NCBI GenBank assembly: GCA_041288095.1
Contig: JBGGMJ010000027.1
Location: forward strand, 1 to 64,000
Reading direction: 5' to 3'
Length of the DNA: 64,000 nt
Source: Myxococcota bacterium
GTDB lineage: Bacteria; Myxococcota; XYA12-FULL-58-9; JALHOP01
A program made the position numbers and the translations under genes. The notes beneath the pieces were generated by a model that searched no databases, was not told the DNA's origin, and worked only from the letters and a program-made list of their open reading frames with translations. Below are positions 15,076 to 55,854 of the stretch, in pieces; positions within the stretch are counted from its first letter, which is position 1, and every line of letters begins with the position of its first letter.

Positions 15076-15627
15076 CTACATGCTTCGCTTCACCAGATCC
15101 ACGAACTCGGTCGCCAGCAAGAACGTCATTTCGACATTACCGAAGCGAAGCCGCATCCCCGACTCGACGATGACCGGGCCGCCCTTGTTCTTGTCGGGCA
15201 CCTCTTCACCATCGACCGAAGTTCCGTTCTTCGAGCCCCCGTCTTGCAGGACGAACTCACCCTTGTCGGAGCGCCGGAAGAAGGCATGGAACTTCGACAC
15301 CGACTCATCCTCGATGATGACGTCGTTGCTCTTCGCTCGGCCGATGGAGATGAAGTTCGGGAACGGCGACCTGCCGGTCCGGCGGACGGGAAAGACCGCG
15401 AAGTTGAGCCTGATGGCCGGTGTTCCTGGCGAGCCGCCTTCGGCCATGGTGTCGATGGCGACCGTCGCCCTGGTGCGGGGCACCGGCTTCAAGGTCTGCA
15501 TGCCCGCTTCGTGCACCAGAAACGCCTCGCCGTGACGTTGGCGGAAGTCCTCGGCCCCTAGCAGGCGAGAATCAGCCACGTAGTTTGACAGGGTCTCGTG
15601 CTCACCCGGCGTCAACACGACGTTCAT
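15076..15627 (-). CDS. FHA domain protein
   Basis: IGR..SND......VSKFHA....D.GSKNGT. Confidence 0.88.
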   Translation of the reverse strand: MNVVLTPGEHETLSNYVADSRLLGAEDFRQRHGEAFLVHEAGMQTLKPVPRTRATVAIDTMAEGGSPGTPAIRLNFAVFPVRRTGRSPFPNFISIGRAKSNDVIIEDESVSKFHAFFRRSDKGEFVLQDGGSKNGTSVDGEEVPDKNKGGPVIVESGMRLRFGNVEMTFLLATEFVDLVKRSM

Positions 15628-50881: not shown

Positions 50882-52519
50882 ATGCGTCTCGTCGCTTGCC
50901 TCGCCGCCTTACTGACCGCCGCCCCGGCCAAACCGGAGGCCACCGGCGCCTTGGCGCTCACGCGTTTCGGCTACGGTCCGCGCGGTAGCGAGCGTGCGGC
51001 TGTCGAGAAGGCGCGCTGGGCGGACGTCATCGAGCGTCAGCTCGCTTACGAGCGCATCGACGACGGTCAGAGCGACAAGGCGCTAAGAGAGCTCGACGAT
51101 CTGCCGACGACCGCCGGCGAGCTCATCGCCCGCTTCCCCAAGCCCAACATGCTGCAGAAGGGCATGGAGCGCATGGGTATCACCCGCGAGCCACCGCCCG
51201 ACGTCGACAAGCCGGGTGAGCTCATTCAGGCATTGCAAGCGCGGCGCCTGGTGCGCGCCGTGACCACCGAACGCCAGCTCTACGAAGCCATGGTCGAGCT
51301 CTGGCTCGATCACTTCAACGTCTTTGCGCGCAAACGCGGCGTCATGTATGCCATAGCGGACTACGAACGAATAATCCGCGAGCACGCGCTCGGCTCGTTC
51401 GAGAGCTTGCTCATCGGGGTGGCCGAGAGCGCCGCCATGGCGATGTACCTCGACAACGACGACAACGTGCGACCCAACGCGCCGTGGCCCATGCAAGCCA
51501 TCCCCGACGAAGTCGACCTGCGCGCCTGCAAATATCTGCCGCGGGAGCGCGTCGAGAAACTGACGCGACGCGCCTCGAAGAACAAATGGCCCAAGGGCAA
51601 GGAGCCCAAGCGCGAGCGCGGTATCAACGAGAACTACGCGCGCGAGCTCCTCGAGCTGCACACGCTGGGGGTCGAGGGCGGCTACACGCAGAACGACGTC
51701 ACCGAGGTCGCGCGCGTCTTTACCGGCTGGACGGTGTTCGACCCCGAAGGGTCACTCGGCTGCGCGGACTCCGGACGCGCGGTGTTCGTGCCGGAGCTCC
51801 ACGATCCCGGCGACAAGGTCGTCTTGGGGCAGACGATAGCGAGCGCTGGACGCGAAGAAGGACTGCAGGTGCTGCGCCTCCTTGCGCGTCATGCGTCGAC
51901 CGCGCGGTTCATCGCGACGAAGCTCGTGCACCGGTTCGTCGCGGATGCACCACCGGCCGCTTTGGTAGACAAGGTCGCGGCGACCTTCACGACATCGAAG
52001 GGCGATCTGCGCGCGGTCATGCGGGTGCTCGCGCTCGATGAGGCGACCATCGCGGCGGCGCTACAACGCTCCAAGGTAAAGCGGCCCTTCGATCTGGTGG
52101 TCAGCAGCCTGCGAGCCGTCGACGCCCAGACCGACGGCGACGTGGTGACGCGCCGTTACCTGCGCGCGCTCAATCACATGCCCTATGCCTGGCAGACACC
52201 GAACGGCTATCCCGACGACGCGGTACGCTGGACCAACGTCGGCGCGCTCACCCAGCGCTTGCGCTTCGGCATCGCCCTCGCGGGGAACGGCATTCAAGGC
52301 ACGCGCGTCGAGCTTCAAAAGATCGTCGGCGACGAGATCGCGAACGGTGGCAAGCCCATCGCCGCCGCCGAGCTCGTCGATGCCATCGCCACCCGACTGC
52401 TCGGCAAGGACCTCTCGAAGAGCACCCGCGACACCGCGATTGCGGCGCTGGGTGATGATCCCAACGCCGCGCGGGCCGTCGGTCTGCTCTTGGGCTCACC
52501 GGAGTTTCAACACCGATGA
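50882..52519 (+). CDS. DUF1800 family protein
   Basis: QL.E.M...W.DHFNV, AM..YLDN..N, NENYARELLELHTLG, DV.E.AR.FTGW, PNGYPD. Confidence 0.92.
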   Translation: MRLVACLAALLTAAPAKPEATGALALTRFGYGPRGSERAAVEKARWADVIERQLAYERIDDGQSDKALRELDDLPTTAGELIARFPKPNMLQKGMERMGITREPPPDVDKPGELIQALQARRLVRAVTTERQLYEAMVELWLDHFNVFARKRGVMYAIADYERIIREHALGSFESLLIGVAESAAMAMYLDNDDNVRPNAPWPMQAIPDEVDLRACKYLPRERVEKLTRRASKNKWPKGKEPKRERGINENYARELLELHTLGVEGGYTQNDVTEVARVFTGWTVFDPEGSLGCADSGRAVFVPELHDPGDKVVLGQTIASAGREEGLQVLRLLARHASTARFIATKLVHRFVADAPPAALVDKVAATFTTSKGDLRAVMRVLALDEATIAAALQRSKVKRPFDLVVSSLRAVDAQTDGDVVTRRYLRALNHMPYAWQTPNGYPDDAVRWTNVGALTQRLRFGIALAGNGIQGTRVELQKIVGDEIANGGKPIAAAELVDAIATRLLGKDLSKSTRDTAIAALGDDPNAARAVGLLLGSPEFQHR

Positions 52520-53757
52520 TCGACCGACGCACGCTCTTGCAGGCCGGCTTGTGCGGTATCGCGGCGCCGAGTCTCCTCGGCCGCCTGGCTTTCGCCGCGC
52601 CCGACACCAAGAAGGTGCTCGTCGTCGTGATGTTACGCGGCGCGGTGGACGGCTTGTCGGTGGTCGCGCCATGCGCCGACGACTCGTATTACGCCGCGCG
52701 TCCGACCATCGCGGTGGCGCGCCCCGATGACACCGCCAAGCCGGAAGCGGAGCGCCTGCTGCGTCTCGACGATCGCTTTGGTCTCCATCCCGCGATGCAA
52801 CCCCTGCACCGTGCCTTCAGCGAGCGACGGCTCGCGTTCGTGCACGCCGCGGGCTCGCCGGCCGCGACACGCTCGCACTTCGACGCCCAGGACTACATGG
52901 AGAGCGGCACACCCGATCGCAAAGCCACCGAGGACGGCTTCTTGAATCGCCTACTCGCGAGCTCGGCGAAGGCCGCCGACACCGAGCTGCGTGCTATCGC
53001 GGTCACCAACGCGATGCCGCGCATCATGAGCGGTCAAGCGCGCGCCGTGGTCTTCTCGACGCTGGGCGACCTCTCGCTCGGACAAGGCAAGGGCGCTGCG
53101 AGCACCGGCGCGAGCTTCGAGGCGATGTACGCCGCTGCGGTCCACGACGTGTTGCACGGGCCGACACAAGAGGTCTTCGACGTCGCCCGGCAAATCGAGA
53201 AGGCCGGTGTCACCAAGATGAAACCGGAGAACGGCGCGGTCTACCCCAAGGACGCCTTTGGCCGCTCGCTCTCCGAGATCGCGGCGCTCATCAGGGCGAA
53301 TCTCGGTGTTCAGATTGCCTTCACCGATATCGGTGGCTGGGACACGCACGCGTCCCAGGGAGGTGCGACGGGGCAGCTCGCCAAACGCCTCGACGTCCTC
53401 GCCAAGAGCCTCGATGCCTTCGCCATCGACCTGGGCAAGCGCATGGACGATGTCGTCGTCGTCGCCATGTCGGAGTTCGGCCGCACCGTGCGCGAAAACG
53501 GATCACGCGGCACCGACCACGGCCATGGCAACGTCATGCTCGTCGCTCACGGTGGGGTGCGTGGCGGCAAGGTTTACGGCACCTGGCCGGGCCTCGGCGA
53601 AGGGCAGCGCTTCGAAGGGCGCGATCTCGCGGTGACGACCGACTTTCGCGAGGTGCTCTGGCAAGTCGCGGCGAAACATCTGCGGGCGACGAACCGGGAT
53701 GTCGTTTTTCCGGGGTTTACGCCGGTGGCCGATGCATCCGCGCTAGCGTTGTTCTAG
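52516..53757 (+). CDS. DUF1501 family protein (Tat signal)
   Basis: DRRTLL signal; LRGAVDGL, RSHFDAQ, GGWDTH, SEFGRT..NG..GTDHG, TTDFR. Confidence 0.93.
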   Translation: MIDRRTLLQAGLCGIAAPSLLGRLAFAAPDTKKVLVVVMLRGAVDGLSVVAPCADDSYYAARPTIAVARPDDTAKPEAERLLRLDDRFGLHPAMQPLHRAFSERRLAFVHAAGSPAATRSHFDAQDYMESGTPDRKATEDGFLNRLLASSAKAADTELRAIAVTNAMPRIMSGQARAVVFSTLGDLSLGQGKGAASTGASFEAMYAAAVHDVLHGPTQEVFDVARQIEKAGVTKMKPENGAVYPKDAFGRSLSEIAALIRANLGVQIAFTDIGGWDTHASQGGATGQLAKRLDVLAKSLDAFAIDLGKRMDDVVVVAMSEFGRTVRENGSRGTDHGHGNVMLVAHGGVRGGKVYGTWPGLGEGQRFEGRDLAVTTDFREVLWQVAAKHLRATNRDVVFPGFTPVADASALALF

Positions 53758-53783
53758 TCTCTTGCGAGGCCGTGACGTCGGCG

Positions 53784-53965
53784 CTTGCGAGCCGTTTTAG
53801 CGTCTGCTGTTTGGGGCCTCGGTGGATCTGCACCGAGGGGGCGGAGGAGACCCGGGGGCCTTCGCCGGCTTTGGGGTCGGGGTTCTGCATGAGCCGGAGG
53901 GGTTGTGCTTCGCTGCCTATGTCGGTGTGTCCGCTGTGGCGGAATGCGCGTCAACGCGCATTTTG
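53784..53965 (+). repeat. Left arm of the long imperfect inverted repeat around the HNH gene
   Basis: 53784-53858 equals the reverse complement of 55305-55379 at 73/75; further shared blocks extend to 53965; internal hairpin CCTCGGTG-N6-CACCGAGG. Confidence 0.92.
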
Positions 53966-54975
53966 GTGAAGTTGCGGGCTTGGTTATGGGCGCGGCAGTA
54001 GAGGCGTAGATTCGAAGTCCTGGTTTCGCCTCCGTCGGCGAACGTGATCTTGTGATCGAACTCGATCCAGGCGGTCGCGCTGCAGCGCTTGCCTGTGGCG
54101 CTGACGAAGGCACAGCGGTCGCCGTCGCGCTCCGAGACTTCGCGTCGGGTCGGGGCTCCTGGGGCACGTGACTTGTCGGGGGCGCGCTCTTCGCGGACCT
54201 CGCCGAGAGGGAGCTGCTTCGGCTTGTCGCTGCGCCCTAGCTTGCGCTTCTCCACAGCCTTGCGTTGATCCCTGATGGCCTTGCTGATGACCTTGGCGAT
54301 CTCGCCGTCTGGAACGCTGTGGCGCACGAGGTCGCGCAAGCGCATGAGCTCCTCGTAGGTCTCGGCGTCGATGGTGAGCTTCAGCTTGTAGTGGCCGGCG
54401 TCGAGGGGCTCGGGTTGGGGCGCGCGCGGCGGAGGAGGAAGCTCGAGCCGCGGAGCTTCCGCTGGCCGTTCAGCGACCCGCGCATGTTCCTGTGCCCGCC
54501 GCTCCTCGACCTTCGCCGCAAACAGGCCCGGCCGCTCATCGACCTTCACTCTGAAGACCGTCGTCGGAACGTGCGGCTTCGGTTCCCAGGTCGCTACCAA
54601 CAGCTTAATCTGCGCGCAGGTCTTGCCCGCAGCCGCTTTGAGCCGCTCACCGTAGTTGCCGGCGTCGAGCACTGGGCCGAGGAGCAGCAGCCCAGACAGA
54701 TGCAGCTGGCGCGCTCGCAACATGTCCAGCACGACCGGATAGTCGACGATGAGATACGCCGCGGTAACGCGCCGCCCGGCCTCATCCCAAGAGTAGCCGA
54801 GCTCTTCGACGCAGTAGGTGCGAAGACTCGTACACGCCTCGCTGAGATGGAGCTTTCTGCGCGCAACCTCCGCGAGATGCGCGATGACGTGGACACATTC
54901 TCCATGCTCCCGCGCGGCGCAAGCCTTCAAGGACACCAAGAGTTCATCGGGTGCTAAAGCGGACAAGTCGTTCAT
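53917..54975 (-). CDS. HNH endonuclease with long N-terminal helical (DUF222-like) region
   Basis: RREV.ERDG.RC....G.RC.....EFDH.....GG....NLRLYCRAHN; N-terminal HLAEV..R.L....SL..YC...LGYS. Confidence 0.88.
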   Translation of the reverse strand: MNDLSALAPDELLVSLKACAAREHGECVHVIAHLAEVARRKLHLSEACTSLRTYCVEELGYSWDEAGRRVTAAYLIVDYPVVLDMLRARQLHLSGLLLLGPVLDAGNYGERLKAAAGKTCAQIKLLVATWEPKPHVPTTVFRVKVDERPGLFAAKVEERRAQEHARVAERPAEAPRLELPPPPRAPQPEPLDAGHYKLKLTIDAETYEELMRLRDLVRHSVPDGEIAKVISKAIRDQRKAVEKRKLGRSDKPKQLPLGEVREERAPDKSRAPGAPTRREVSERDGDRCAFVSATGKRCSATAWIEFDHKITFADGGETRTSNLRLYCRAHNQARNFTKMRVDAHSATADTPT

Positions 54976-55192
54976 GACTCATCCTAACACGGTAATTTTT
55001 TGCCCCTTTGCAGCCCCGTGGTGCCCCGCAAATGCCCGCGGATGCGAAAATCAGGGAAGCCGCCGCGAAAACGCAACAGCGCGCACACCAACGCGCGCCA
55101 AGGCCATTCCTGGGCACGCCGGAAGCGCTAAGGCGCCGACACCGAAACGCGACGTCAATACAAAAGTTAAATTTTTTATGCGCCCGCGTACG

Positions 55193-55379
55193 CAAAATAC
55201 GCGTTAACGCGCATTTCCAAAACGTCCGCTATAGCGGCACGATCCCATGCGAAGCACAACCCTCCGGCCCCGCGCAGCAAGCAGACGCCAAGGTAACCGC
55301 CCGCCCCCCGGGTCTCCTCCACCCCCTCGGTGCAGATCCACCGAGGCCTCAAACAGCAGACGCTAAAACGGCTCGCAAG
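55193..55379 (-). repeat. Right arm of the long imperfect inverted repeat around the HNH gene
   Basis: Reverse complement of the left arm; same hairpin at 55325-55346. Confidence 0.92.
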
Positions 55380-55395
55380 TGACCACAAAACAAGC

Positions 55396-55854
55396 TCAGC
55401 GCAGCCCCAACAAAATCTCGAAGTACGCCATCACCTCGGGGTCGCACGTAGGTCGCGTGGCATAGACCAGAAAAGCCCGGCTCGCTCCCACCTGCGGGTC
55501 GTCGGGCACCGCGGCGAGCGCTTCCTCGAGGTGCGTACGCAGGCGAACGAGGGCGGGGTTGTCGCGCAACGCCGCCTCGAGGTGTCCATGCACCTTCTGC
55601 GAGAACGGACGCGGATCTTCGGCGTAAGCCGACTCGATGGCCTGCATGAACTGGCCGATGATCTCGGTGGTCTGGCCGTCGACCTCGCCCATCACGGCGC
55701 GCATCCACATGCTCAAGATGCCGATGGTCTCGAAGAGCTGCTCGTCGTTGAGCTGGCCGCGGCTCACCATCAGCGGCACGTCGATGTTCAGGAGCTCGTC
55801 GATACGCGCGCGTACGGTCGCGAGCGGATCGTCACCTTGCGGGACGTCGCTCAA
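55396..55854 (-). CDS. Hypothetical helical protein
   Basis: 152-aa ORF, GC3-rich codons, TTGA overlap with the upstream gene. Confidence 0.65.
   Translation of the reverse strand: MSDVPQGDDPLATVRARIDELLNIDVPLMVSRGQLNDEQLFETIGILSMWMRAVMGEVDGQTTEIIGQFMQAIESAYAEDPRPFSQKVHGHLEAALRDNPALVRLRTHLEEALAAVPDDPQVGASRAFLVYATRPTCDPEVMAYFEILLGLR

Follow-up and report, generated by a model that had tools for sequence, protein, structure and literature searches.

A repeated HNH gene with long inverted ends between convergent genes of a Myxococcota genome: a putative IS-like mobile element

The window analysed here, a 64,000-nt stretch of DNA from a Myxococcota bacterium, carries at 53758-55395 a unit of ~1.64 kb made of a single gene, coding for an HNH protein, and of two modular terminal inverted repeats of ~190-210 bp. 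From sequence comparisons we propose, with a probability of roughly 0.6, that this unit is an autonomous IS-like mobile element moved by its own HNH protein. A preliminary description of the locus had suggested a selfish element spread by this protein. The repeated and selfish character is borne out, the 1.64-kb element being present in ~10 copies in this genome, while the HNH protein as the mover is what we infer.

Architecture of the element

A repeat search over 3.2 kb retrieved the inverted arms as 53777-53858 and 55305-55386, i.e. 82 nt that are 94% complementary and 1446 nt apart. The remaining inverted pairs in the same 3.2 kb are all at most 28 nt long, so that the arm match is far beyond chance; those of at least 18 nt are 72-81% complementary and those of 12-14 nt reach 92-100%. 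The search also gave an inner pair (53943-53965 and 55193-55215; 23 nt, 91% complementary), and two other inner blocks, 53893-53913 with 55249-55268 and 53931-53943 with 55225-55237, were read directly in the sequence. Thus the inverted arms around the HNH gene (~185 bp in the preliminary description) and the three inner inverted blocks reported with them are all present.

The ends of the unit had been placed 27 and 17 nt from the stop codons of the two flanking genes, which are convergent. They lie further out, at ~53758-53761 (left) and 55395 (right). The unit common to other copies includes at the left a degenerate copy of the terminus (23 nt, 53761-53783) and continues at the right to 55395, and contigs of public runs branch into different flanks at 53761-53767 and 55382-55395. 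Because this shared unit reaches past 53784 and 55379, the distances to the stop codons are in fact 3 nt (left) and 0 nt (right), and the element spans from stop to stop. The degenerate terminus, or “stutter” unit, is found 1-4 times in other copies; for the C81 copy TRF gives a period of 22, 3.3 copies and 90% matches.

The HNH gene is the sole long frame conserved between copies, and its 3' end is overlapped by the left arm (53917-53965). No second conserved ORF was found in the element, copies differing by indels across 55219-55304; the first reading of the HNH gene as the only gene between the arms was right. A search of its leader for a sigma-70 consensus promoter gave none. The left inner palindrome with its T-run looks like a plus-strand terminator for transcription entering from the left, and the right one (55193-55215) is terminator-like on the minus strand for incoming transcription. 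The tip motif CTTGCGAGCC is a near-palindromic 8-mer.

Table 1. Features of the element and of its two neighbouring genes (window coordinates)
Feature	Position	Strand	Remark
Left host gene, DUF1501	52516..53757	+	PF07394, 138.8 bits
TAG stop of the DUF1501 gene	53755-53757	+	3 nt from the element
Left outer extension: 3 nt, then one 23-nt “stutter” unit (53761-53783)	53758..53783	.	degenerate tandem terminus copy
Left arm, terminal module	53784..53858	.	tip motif CTTGCGAGCC, conserved motif GGTGGATCTGCACCGAGGGGG..GAGGAGACCCGGG
Left arm, conserved inner block	53893..53913	.	GCCGGAGGGGTTGTGCTTCGC
Left arm, inner modules	53931..53966	+	small hairpin 53931-53942, then palindrome AATGCGCGT/ACGCGCATT and T-run
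HNH gene, 352 aa	53917..54975	-	sole gene; C-terminal tail coded within the left arm
Leader, probable promoter region of the HNH gene	54976..55192	-	
Terminator-like hairpin	55077-55100		in the HNH gene leader
AT-rich stretch with TTGACG	55153-55158	-	in the HNH gene leader
Right arm, inner modules	55193..55268	-	palindrome and T-run 55193-55215, small hairpin 55225-55237, conserved block 55249-55268
Right arm, terminal module	55305..55379	.	inverted copy of 53784-53858
Right outer extension	55380..55395	.	TGACCAC + AAAACAAGC; common to other copies; abuts the stop of the right-hand gene
Stop codon of the 152-aa gene (TCA on the + strand)	55396-55398		touches the element
Right host gene, 152 aa	55396..55854	-	without Pfam family

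Copies in this genome and in relatives

The genome is a bin of 212 contigs, 90% complete, in which the 194-nt arm has 22 matches. By blastn with the whole element, C29 carries a second full-length copy (92.5% over 1527 nt) and C10 an intact but diverged one (67%); three others (C175, C190 and C100) are internally deleted and have both arms. Many element fragments sit at contig ends. The deletion copies of C190 (~540 nt) and C100 (~650 nt) are single, differing deletion products, and deletion derivatives retain scraps of the ORF. Each copy has unrelated flanks, with at least 10 different sites occupied. On contigs of public runs the read depth within the element is several-fold above that of the flanks; the contigs of four such runs contain no joint skipping the whole element and no circle junction. 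A remnant was also seen on C135.

All arms accessible to examination in this genome are linked either to HNH sequence or to its deletion remnant. The exact terminus 13-mer is followed by a full arm in 16 of 16 occurrences, and the search with this 13-mer for solo termini or footprints gave none. The arm is thus not a dispersed repeat independent of HNH genes. Nor is it plausible that the inverted repeat arose by chance or by faulty assembly, a reading to which we give a negligible probability: a join across a repeat may have produced the window contig, but the same arm pair is found on C175, C190, C100 and C10, in the congener G030 and on contigs that stem from independent public runs.

In the phylum, 62 genomes out of 301 have a match, and in most of these the gene is multicopy. 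G133 has 11 copies of a 2-kb single-ORF unit (91-94% identity) and G085 five copies of a single-ORF unit (88-94% identity); such single-ORF multicopy units recur in several genomes, closed ones included. Some homologues of the HNH gene also have flanking arms. The 55%-identical proteins of G030 and of a second, diverged subfamily in the window genome lie between homologous arms (~75% identity), and in two distant genomes, G129 and G085, there are arms of ~200 nt whose sequence is not homologous to that of the window arms. Among 27 homologue loci, taken from different genomes, only 4 have clear long arms, which are therefore characteristic of a lineage and not of the family as a whole. A possible decayed arm in G066 was rejected, its score not exceeding the highest among 100 shuffles.

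Conservation of the arms

Over 7 nt plus the terminal 80 nt of 19 arms, the identity is 93% between left arms, 95% between right arms and 89% between left and right arms. The terminal 80 nt are conserved above synonymous sites. The variant CTCCCAGG occurs in 5 of the 19 arms, both left and right. In 11/11 arms, compensatory changes maintain the inner palindrome. For the largest arm hairpin (hairpin 1), 4-7 of the 8 pairs are kept in other subfamilies, with no compensatory change. The arms are conserved mainly by their sequence, with compensatory upkeep at the inner palindrome only.

These data bear on another proposal made at first, that of a structured RNA: the arms would provide the HNH protein with an OMEGA-like guide or scaffold RNA, or would pair as 5' and 3' ends in an intron-like manner. 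Transcripts from either convergent gene would indeed carry the same arm sequence, ending at the inner hairpin, and the compensatory changes of the inner palindrome fit an RNA, as do the best, very weak, matches of the HNH domain, which are to IscB and Cas9. But hairpin 1 is not kept as a structure, and the left and right arm RNAs adopt different folds (z-scores -3.4 and only -1.4, respectively). Rfam at E≤1, HEARO included, gave nothing beyond two chance-level matches for the window element, and at the gathering threshold no match for seven related loci. The protein has no RuvC domain and the element is intergenic. Pairing of the ends meets a further difficulty, the inward terminator-like hairpins being expected to halt a full-length transcript that enters from outside, and a guide RNA leaves insertion at new sites unexplained. 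We therefore regard a structured RNA as highly improbable.

The HNH protein

Pfam, NCBIfam and PHROGs give only HNH: no transposase, recombinase or reverse transcriptase family is matched by the element, in agreement with the first impression that it fits no known transposase type. For the window protein the Pfam HNH match is weak (18.3 bits for a cut-off of 21.4) and the PHROGs HNH match is clear (E-value of 2.6e-7); the Pfam HNH model is matched by 51 of 74 relatives. From its N-terminus the protein has a DUF222-like helical domain, then a linker, a middle domain and, at the C-terminus, an HNH nuclease (beta-beta-alpha-metal) with a Zn-finger. R283, C288, C298, H308, C327 and H330 are invariant in alignments of 31 and 74 rows, the catalytic residues and those of the Cys/His zinc site among them; at least 90% of the rows retain D284, N322 and N331, D284 being invariant in the first alignment.

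Pfam DUF222 (PF02720) does not match the window protein and has no match at E≤0.01 in its own genome; among relatives it matches 1/31 and 8/74, with a best E-value of 1.8e-6. Of 30 Atlas neighbours of residues 1-140, 22 fall in the DUF222-carrying cluster set, and in the Atlas cluster shown 21% of members have DUF222. That the helical N-domain binds DNA is a guess. At E≤1e-30 the family comprises 10,341 protein clusters. A related-locus search returned no conserved stretch with an alignment as query and no relative among the genome contigs with the single protein; neither plasmids nor phages yielded a tblastn match.

The dN/dS ratio is 0.127 between the C27 and C29 copies (dS 0.18) and 0.152 between the C10 copy and a copy of G030. 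These values indicate that the HNH gene is under purifying selection between copies, which counts against a cargo role. Another possibility to consider is that the element is a non-autonomous carrier that moves through the action of an unlinked transposase on its arms, with the HNH gene as a passenger (a selfish or defensive nuclease). HNH enzymes are not among the known transposases, the deletion copies show that arms alone can persist, and an unlinked transposase could be missed in an incomplete bin (90%, 212 contigs). However, no arm is attached to anything but HNH sequence, single-ORF multicopy units exist in several genomes, some of them closed, and a PADLOC search had no match. Together with the selection on the ORF, this makes a carrier quite unlikely.

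Insertion sites

In congeners, the empty sites reveal insertion into 0 to ~22 nt between convergent stop codons, or shared by them. The C10 copy of G000 has an empty site in G030 and G086, the C126+C29 copy in G030 and G066 (junctions CTAG/CTAA), the C211+C13 copy in G030, G066 and G086, and the C81+C212 copy in G030, with CTAG at both sides. Conversely, the copies of G030 have empty sites in G066, G086 and G000. CTAG is often found within the insertion spacers and is at the junctions of 9 of the 18 ends. There is no target-site duplication of fixed length, and none at all in the two cleanest cases, the C10 copies of G000 and of G030. For the copy of C190 no matching flanks were found in congeners, that of C175 has a match on one side only, and the two flanks of a G133 copy are never together in any relative.

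At 14 of the 18 ends a high-GC3 ORF reads toward the element and stops 8-60 nt from the core; with a crude gene model, convergent junctions make up only 687 of 3219. The loci of G133 and G085 were left out, the orientation of flanking genes being too noisy in these very GC-rich sequences. Selection after insertion, rather than targeting, could be a partial cause of the bias for convergent junctions.

The clean insertions are also compatible with a homing-type spread, in which the HNH protein would break targets or copies, and recombinational repair (gene conversion) would copy the element with the arms as homology. Variants shared by left and right arms and by different copies, such as CTCCCAGG, point the same way. 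Passages of a recent report place the related REP13E12 loci among those most frequently gene-converted in M. tuberculosis (PMC13061034). Yet the empty sites of congeners contain no arm-like homology to template a repair, the occupied sites are numerous and unrelated, and the deletion copies, with their scraps of ORF, are derived forms and not ancestral empty palindromes. Homing is in our view an unlikely explanation.

Comparison with known elements

The closest likeness is to the REP13E12 (DUF222 + HNH) family of Actinobacteria, e.g. 13E12 of M. tuberculosis. Both have a helical N-domain of DUF222 or DUF222-like type and a C-terminal HNH with a Zn-finger, and both are dispersed repeats (~1.4-2 kb) with one gene and no known function. 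Pfam DUF222 is matched by 8 of the 74 family representatives, but not by the window protein itself. The mycobacterial repeats were reportedly noted as early as 1999 and are still without a function. We know of no description, for REP13E12, of long modular inverted arms, of arm-only deletion copies or of stop-to-stop insertion between convergent genes. As of 2026, passages of the report cited above state that these loci “lack defined biological function” (PMC13061034).

With IS and MITEs the element shares terminal inverted repeats, multiple copies with unrelated flanks, internally deleted non-autonomous copies, shielding from outside transcription, and a size of 1.4-2 kb with one gene. It differs by having no DDE, HUH, Ser, Tyr or Cas1 enzyme, by its modular arms of ~200 bp (tens of bp in IS) and by the absence of a regular target duplication. 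Unlike MITE- or REP-type repeats, its full copies encode a protein and its short forms are single, different deletions. In the case of IscB/ISC (OMEGA), the HNH of Cas9/IscB type is the nearest solved relative, weakly (E 0.07), and a long non-coding stretch likewise lies upstream of the gene. But the NCBIfam IscB model covers only the HNH part of the window protein (residues 271-340; 17.7 bits for a cut-off of 175), the element lacks a RuvC domain, an omega-RNA match and a TnpA partner, and its ends are true inverted repeats, not of the IS200/605 type.

Free-standing HNH homing endonuclease genes are also selfish HNH genes that spread with flanking DNA; here, however, the gene is outside any intron, intein or phage gene and does not adjoin a conserved cleavage site within a gene, and the element, which bears inverted ends of its own and has given rise to non-autonomous derivatives, has ~10 unrelated intergenic targets. 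Elements directed to gene ends or terminators (group IIC introns, REP/BIME-targeting IS, IS630) resemble it by insertion just past genes and by CTAG-rich junctions, but they have a reverse transcriptase or a DDE transposase, which it lacks, and its insertion is between two convergent stops and not after a hairpin. IS630 inserts at CTAG and typically duplicates TA, a duplication not seen here. In the literature searched, there was no paper on an HNH-only element with inverted ends.

A model for mobility

We thus favour an autonomous element whose HNH protein would be its own mobility enzyme. The helical domains would bind the conserved arm motifs, and the HNH domain would cleave the target as well as the near-palindromic CTYGCGAG tips or their close vicinity. 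HNH nucleases act by hydrolysis and, to our knowledge, are known neither for strand transfer nor as transposases, so a joining step by the host has to be assumed: host ligation, end-joining or repair synthesis could take the place of DDE-type strand transfer. Ku is present, which only permits the idea of host end-joining. The inner palindrome and T-run of each arm would block read-through from the two host genes, and a host gene deprived of its own stop codon could find one in the tip.

More tentatively, the DUF222-like/HNH protein may be a new kind of transposase, a His-Me-finger nuclease acting alone, recognizing modular inverted ends of ~200 bp and inserting between convergent stops without DDE, HUH or recombinase chemistry. 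A less likely variant is that read-through arm RNAs from the two host genes guide the nuclease. DUF222-type/HNH proteins form a large family annotated simply as “HNH endonuclease” and whose role is not known. The present locus and its sister copies give this family the anatomy of a mobile element, with inverted ends, non-autonomous derivatives, empty sites in relatives and a striking target, the few bases that separate two convergent stop codons; this anatomy makes the spread of HNH genes directly testable. If the HNH protein is sufficient, its transposase chemistry would be new to the known IS families, and it would be a compact, site-selective DNA-insertion enzyme. The family of more than 10,000 clusters carrying the “HNH endonuclease signature motif”, REP13E12 included, would in that case represent a superfamily of bacterial transposons that has gone unrecognized.

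Flanks of the window copy

The window copy itself yielded no empty site, its two flanks being on different contigs in G066 and G086. Since these flanks belong to different ancestral loci, the window contig arose either by recombination between two copies or by a join that the assembly made through the repeat. In practice such elements break short-read assemblies and mark points of rearrangement, as at the window.

Copies of the element

The arm-flanked HNH unit proposed in the preliminary description is real and more general than was seen there: it is a multicopy element, with relatives elsewhere. In the genome of the window (G000, a bin of 212 contigs, 90% complete; copies are named by contig, C27 being the window copy) a search with the 194-nt left arm gives 22 matches. 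A blastn search with the whole unit recovered one further full copy (C29, 92.5% over 1527 nt), one that is intact but diverged (C10, 67% over 1197 nt) and three internally deleted copies that retain both arms: C175 is without element positions 904-1414, and C190 (~540 nt) and C100 (~650 nt) keep interior scraps that differ between them. It also returned numerous fragments at contig ends, a hallmark of repeats at which short-read assembly breaks. The count of ends is 9 left (plus one fragment) and 10 right; synteny with congeners pairs the contig halves C126 and C29, C211 and C13, C81 and C212. All 16 exact 13-mers of the terminus continue into a complete arm; solo arms are thus absent from G000. 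In contigs from public runs the depth in the element is several times higher than in the flanks, and these contigs switch to other flanks at 53761-53767 and 55382-55395. Among 22 genomes of the order, arm DNA occurs only in G000 (21 places) and its congener G030 (5 places).

Anatomy of the arms

The long inverted arms (sequence and repeat search), the inner pair (repeat search), two further inner blocks (read from the sequence) and the open reading frame between convergent genes were all found as first described. The remaining inverted pairs within the same 3.2 kb do not exceed 28 nt. The ends, which had been set at 53784 and 55379, were too far inward: in an alignment of 19 arms, sequence common to the copies reaches further out. 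On the left outer side every copy of the element repeats its terminus in 1-4 degenerate tandem units of 22-23 nt (in C81, period 22, 3.3 copies, 90% matches by TRF); on the right, TGACCRC and ~9-15 more nt are common to the copies. Clear genome matches to the 22-23-nt outer unit adjoin element ends, the remainder being 2-mismatch matches on other contigs. The window element thus runs from stop codon to stop codon.

Coordinates of the window copy and its flanking genes
Feature	Position	Strand	Description
Left flanking gene	52516-53757	+	DUF1501
Element	~53758-53761 to 55395
Inverted arms	53777-53858 / 55305-55386		82 nt, 94% complementary
HNH gene	53917-54975	-	352 aa
Inner pair	53943-53965 / 55193-55215		23 nt, 91% complementary
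Leader hairpin	55077-55100	-	terminator-like, with T-run
Right flanking gene	55396-55854	-	152 aa

Five parts make up each arm: (1) the tip, which contains the near-palindromic 8-mer CTYGCGAG; (2) a conserved motif, GGTGGWTYTGGCACCGAGGGGG..GAGGAGACCCGGG; (3) a middle part specific to the left (L) or right (R) arm; (4) a conserved block with a small hairpin; (5) an inner palindrome with a T-run after it. The same modules are found across subfamilies (C27-type, C10-type and three G030 types). Over 7 nt plus the terminal 80 nt, identity among copies is 93% for L-L, 95% for R-R and 89% for L-R; by comparison, the synonymous sites of the gene differ by 0.16-0.18.

A two-base variant, CACCGAGG to CTCCCAGG, disrupts the arm hairpin in 5 of 19 arms, both L and R, among those of C175, C100, C29 and C92; its state may differ between the two arms of a single copy. 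This distribution suggests exchange between arms or copies. Separately, the R arms of one G030 subfamily have, in their outer extension and before the tip, a perfect hairpin AAATGGTGAC-A-GTCACCATTT (L058:620-676, L061:680-750), common to copies at different loci.

Insertion sites

At 14 of 18 element ends in G000 there is a high-GC3 ORF that points at the element and stops 8-60 nt short of the arm core; under a looser filter this holds for 18/18, and an outward ORF alone was found at none of the 18. The stop is TAG at 13/18 ends, versus 36% genome-wide (one-sided binomial p 0.002, a crude test), and CTAG is present at 9/18. With a crude gene model, 687 of 3219 junctions are convergent, with a median stop-to-stop spacer of 21 nt.

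Insertion sites in G000 and its congener G030
Copy	Empty site	Filled site	Remark
G000:C10 (intact)	TAG-CGCC-TCA	element inside 4-nt spacer	no duplication, at most 1 nt changed
C81+C212	overlapping stops in CTAG	CTAG both sides
C126+C29	overlapping CTAG stops (G030)	tips touch TAG and CTA	right-hand gene 7 codons longer
C211+C13	spacer ~22 nt (congener G066)	tips touch TGA and CTA
G030:C10		directly after shared CTAG	no duplication; tip gives TGA to gene deprived of its stop; one arm internally deleted
G030:C3		in 17-nt convergent spacer
G030:C5		replaces gene's last codons, supplies its stop
G030:C7		directly after TAA

Across the filled and empty sites compared with congeners there is no regular target duplication, and by the same comparison every insertion examined lies at the extreme ends of genes.

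The reading that we prefer (probability about 0.6) is that of an autonomous element whose HNH protein would bind the arm motifs and make the breaks, host functions performing the joining. Ku is encoded in G000, which is permissive only for host joining. There is a substantial chance that the element represents a new transposase type. Homing by recombinational repair, which we consider unlikely, would account for the arm variants common to copies and for the gene-conversion record of REP13E12, regions that PMC13061034 presents as gene-conversion hotspots without defined function; but it leaves unexplained the entry into sites without homology.

Two sites in G000 may be mentioned here. At C171:4094-4320, four tandem 38-nt repeats occupy an intergenic site where G030 has an HNH element. 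At C129 ~15240-15270 (reverse strand), where G030 also carries an element, a possibly tip-like sequence ending in GGCTCGCGAG directly follows a TAA stop.

Junctions of the window copy

In congeners the gene opposite DUF1501 is a different one, 3-9 nt away in G030 and G086 and ~30 nt away in G066. The two window flanks (53757/55396 junctions) are not neighbours there (G066:C11, G086:C113), and the 152-aa gene adjoins the gene flanking the left end on contig C208 of G000. The window contig therefore arose either by recombination between two copies or by an assembly mis-join through the repeat. At a second DUF1501 3' end (G000:C135:1-290, 91.5% identical over 282 nt to window 53510-53790), all that is present of the element is its 23-nt outer unit together with 7 nt from the start of the arm core; 2 nt further on, the gene found next to DUF1501 in G066 has its stop codon. 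C135 thus seems to preserve what was left when an element was lost, either in a paralogue or in a co-binned strain. The anatomy is confirmed by other copies and does not depend on the origin of the window contig or of this remnant.

In G066 the orthologous site of the C208/window-right copy is a 210-nt spacer (C11 200802-201013, L140) with pieces that resemble an arm: CTTGCGAGG, and 23 nt that match the inner hairpin and palindrome. Their score equals the best of 100 shuffles. This is possibly a decayed element.

Structure and transcription signals

In nine arms from other subfamilies the 3' half of the large arm hairpin is near-invariant and the 5' half drifts, 4-7 of 8 pairs forming; the hairpin is not maintained as a structure. 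The inner palindrome is kept in 11/11 arms with three different sequences, i.e. by compensatory change, which is as compatible with a dimeric protein site as with a hairpin. Folding z-scores of the two arms are modest (DNA -3.0 and -1.75; RNA -3.35 and -1.42), their global folds differ, and Rfam gave nothing for the window element or seven related loci. An RNA-based reading is very improbable, and less likely than the autonomous element.

The palindrome and T-run are directed inward in both arms, and would terminate transcription arriving from host genes. A promoter search of the HNH-gene leader found no consensus promoter; an AT-rich TTGACG region just inside the R arm is likely the gene's promoter. 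The leader hairpin may be an attenuator limiting HNH expression.

The HNH protein and its family

The window protein scores below threshold for HNH in Pfam and matches HNH families in PHROGs (best E 2.6e-7). The NCBIfam IscB model touches the HNH part only (17.7 bits, cut-off 175), and a PDB profile search gave only weak HNH matches (IscB E 0.07, Cas9, McrA). Alignments of 31 and 74 relatives share one plan, i.e. a helical N-domain, a Pro-rich linker, a middle domain and HNH, with R40, L103, R278, R283, C288, C298, H308, G316, C327 and H330 invariant in both. Pfam DUF222 matches 1/31 and 8/74 relatives, and neither the window protein nor any other in G000; in a protein-language-model comparison, most neighbours of residues 1-140 are DUF222-carrying clusters. 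We thus assign the protein to a distant branch within the DUF222-HNH superfamily.

This is a very large family: a search at E<=1e-3 yields 45,041 representatives and one at E<=1e-30 still yields 10,341, full length for most. It is present in at least 62/301 genomes of the phylum, usually in several copies, and in at least 38/40 genomes of one family-level group, both floors since the first look used a stricter criterion. With a dN/dS of 0.127 between two G000 copies (0.15-0.36 in other pairs), selection thus acts on the protein at the element level. That the HNH gene is cargo of an unseen transposase is quite improbable, and less likely than the autonomous element.

Full-text literature searches found no publication about an element that has inverted ends and an HNH gene alone. 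DIVE (PMC10589994) lists REP13E12/HNH/DUF222 among repetitive elements and Xu et al. (PMC3592412) mention DUF222 merely as an accessory domain. The element is best classed with the DUF222-HNH repeat elements, which are poorly understood, as a new and well-delimited variant.

Related elements in other genomes

Congener G030 has ~10 copies with homologous arms, some nested or truncated. The closed genome G133 has 11 copies (91-94% identity) of a 2-kb single-ORF unit whose inverted terminus is 13 bp long and which is bordered on each side by (GGGGTC)n arrays; the array pattern has 481 matches there and zero in two of its congeners. G085 has 5 copies (88-94% identity) with arms of ~110-230 nt, and in G129 arms of ~200 nt surround a perfect palindrome. 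These relatives likewise act as mobile units. By a crude test across different genomes, long inverted flanks are clear at 4/27 loci, the window's own included, and marginal at 2; long arms are thus recurrent, not universal.

Around the 2-kb element of G133 (L070-L075, e.g. C1 1911232-1911481) the (GGGGTC/GAGGTC)n arrays are of variable length and in direct orientation on both sides. Nested or adjacent partial copies were seen in G030 on C5 (L025:2880-3006) and C7 (L063:2550-2793), with the inverted fragment of a second element beside a full one and a whole-arm tandem duplication (83.6% over ~120 nt).
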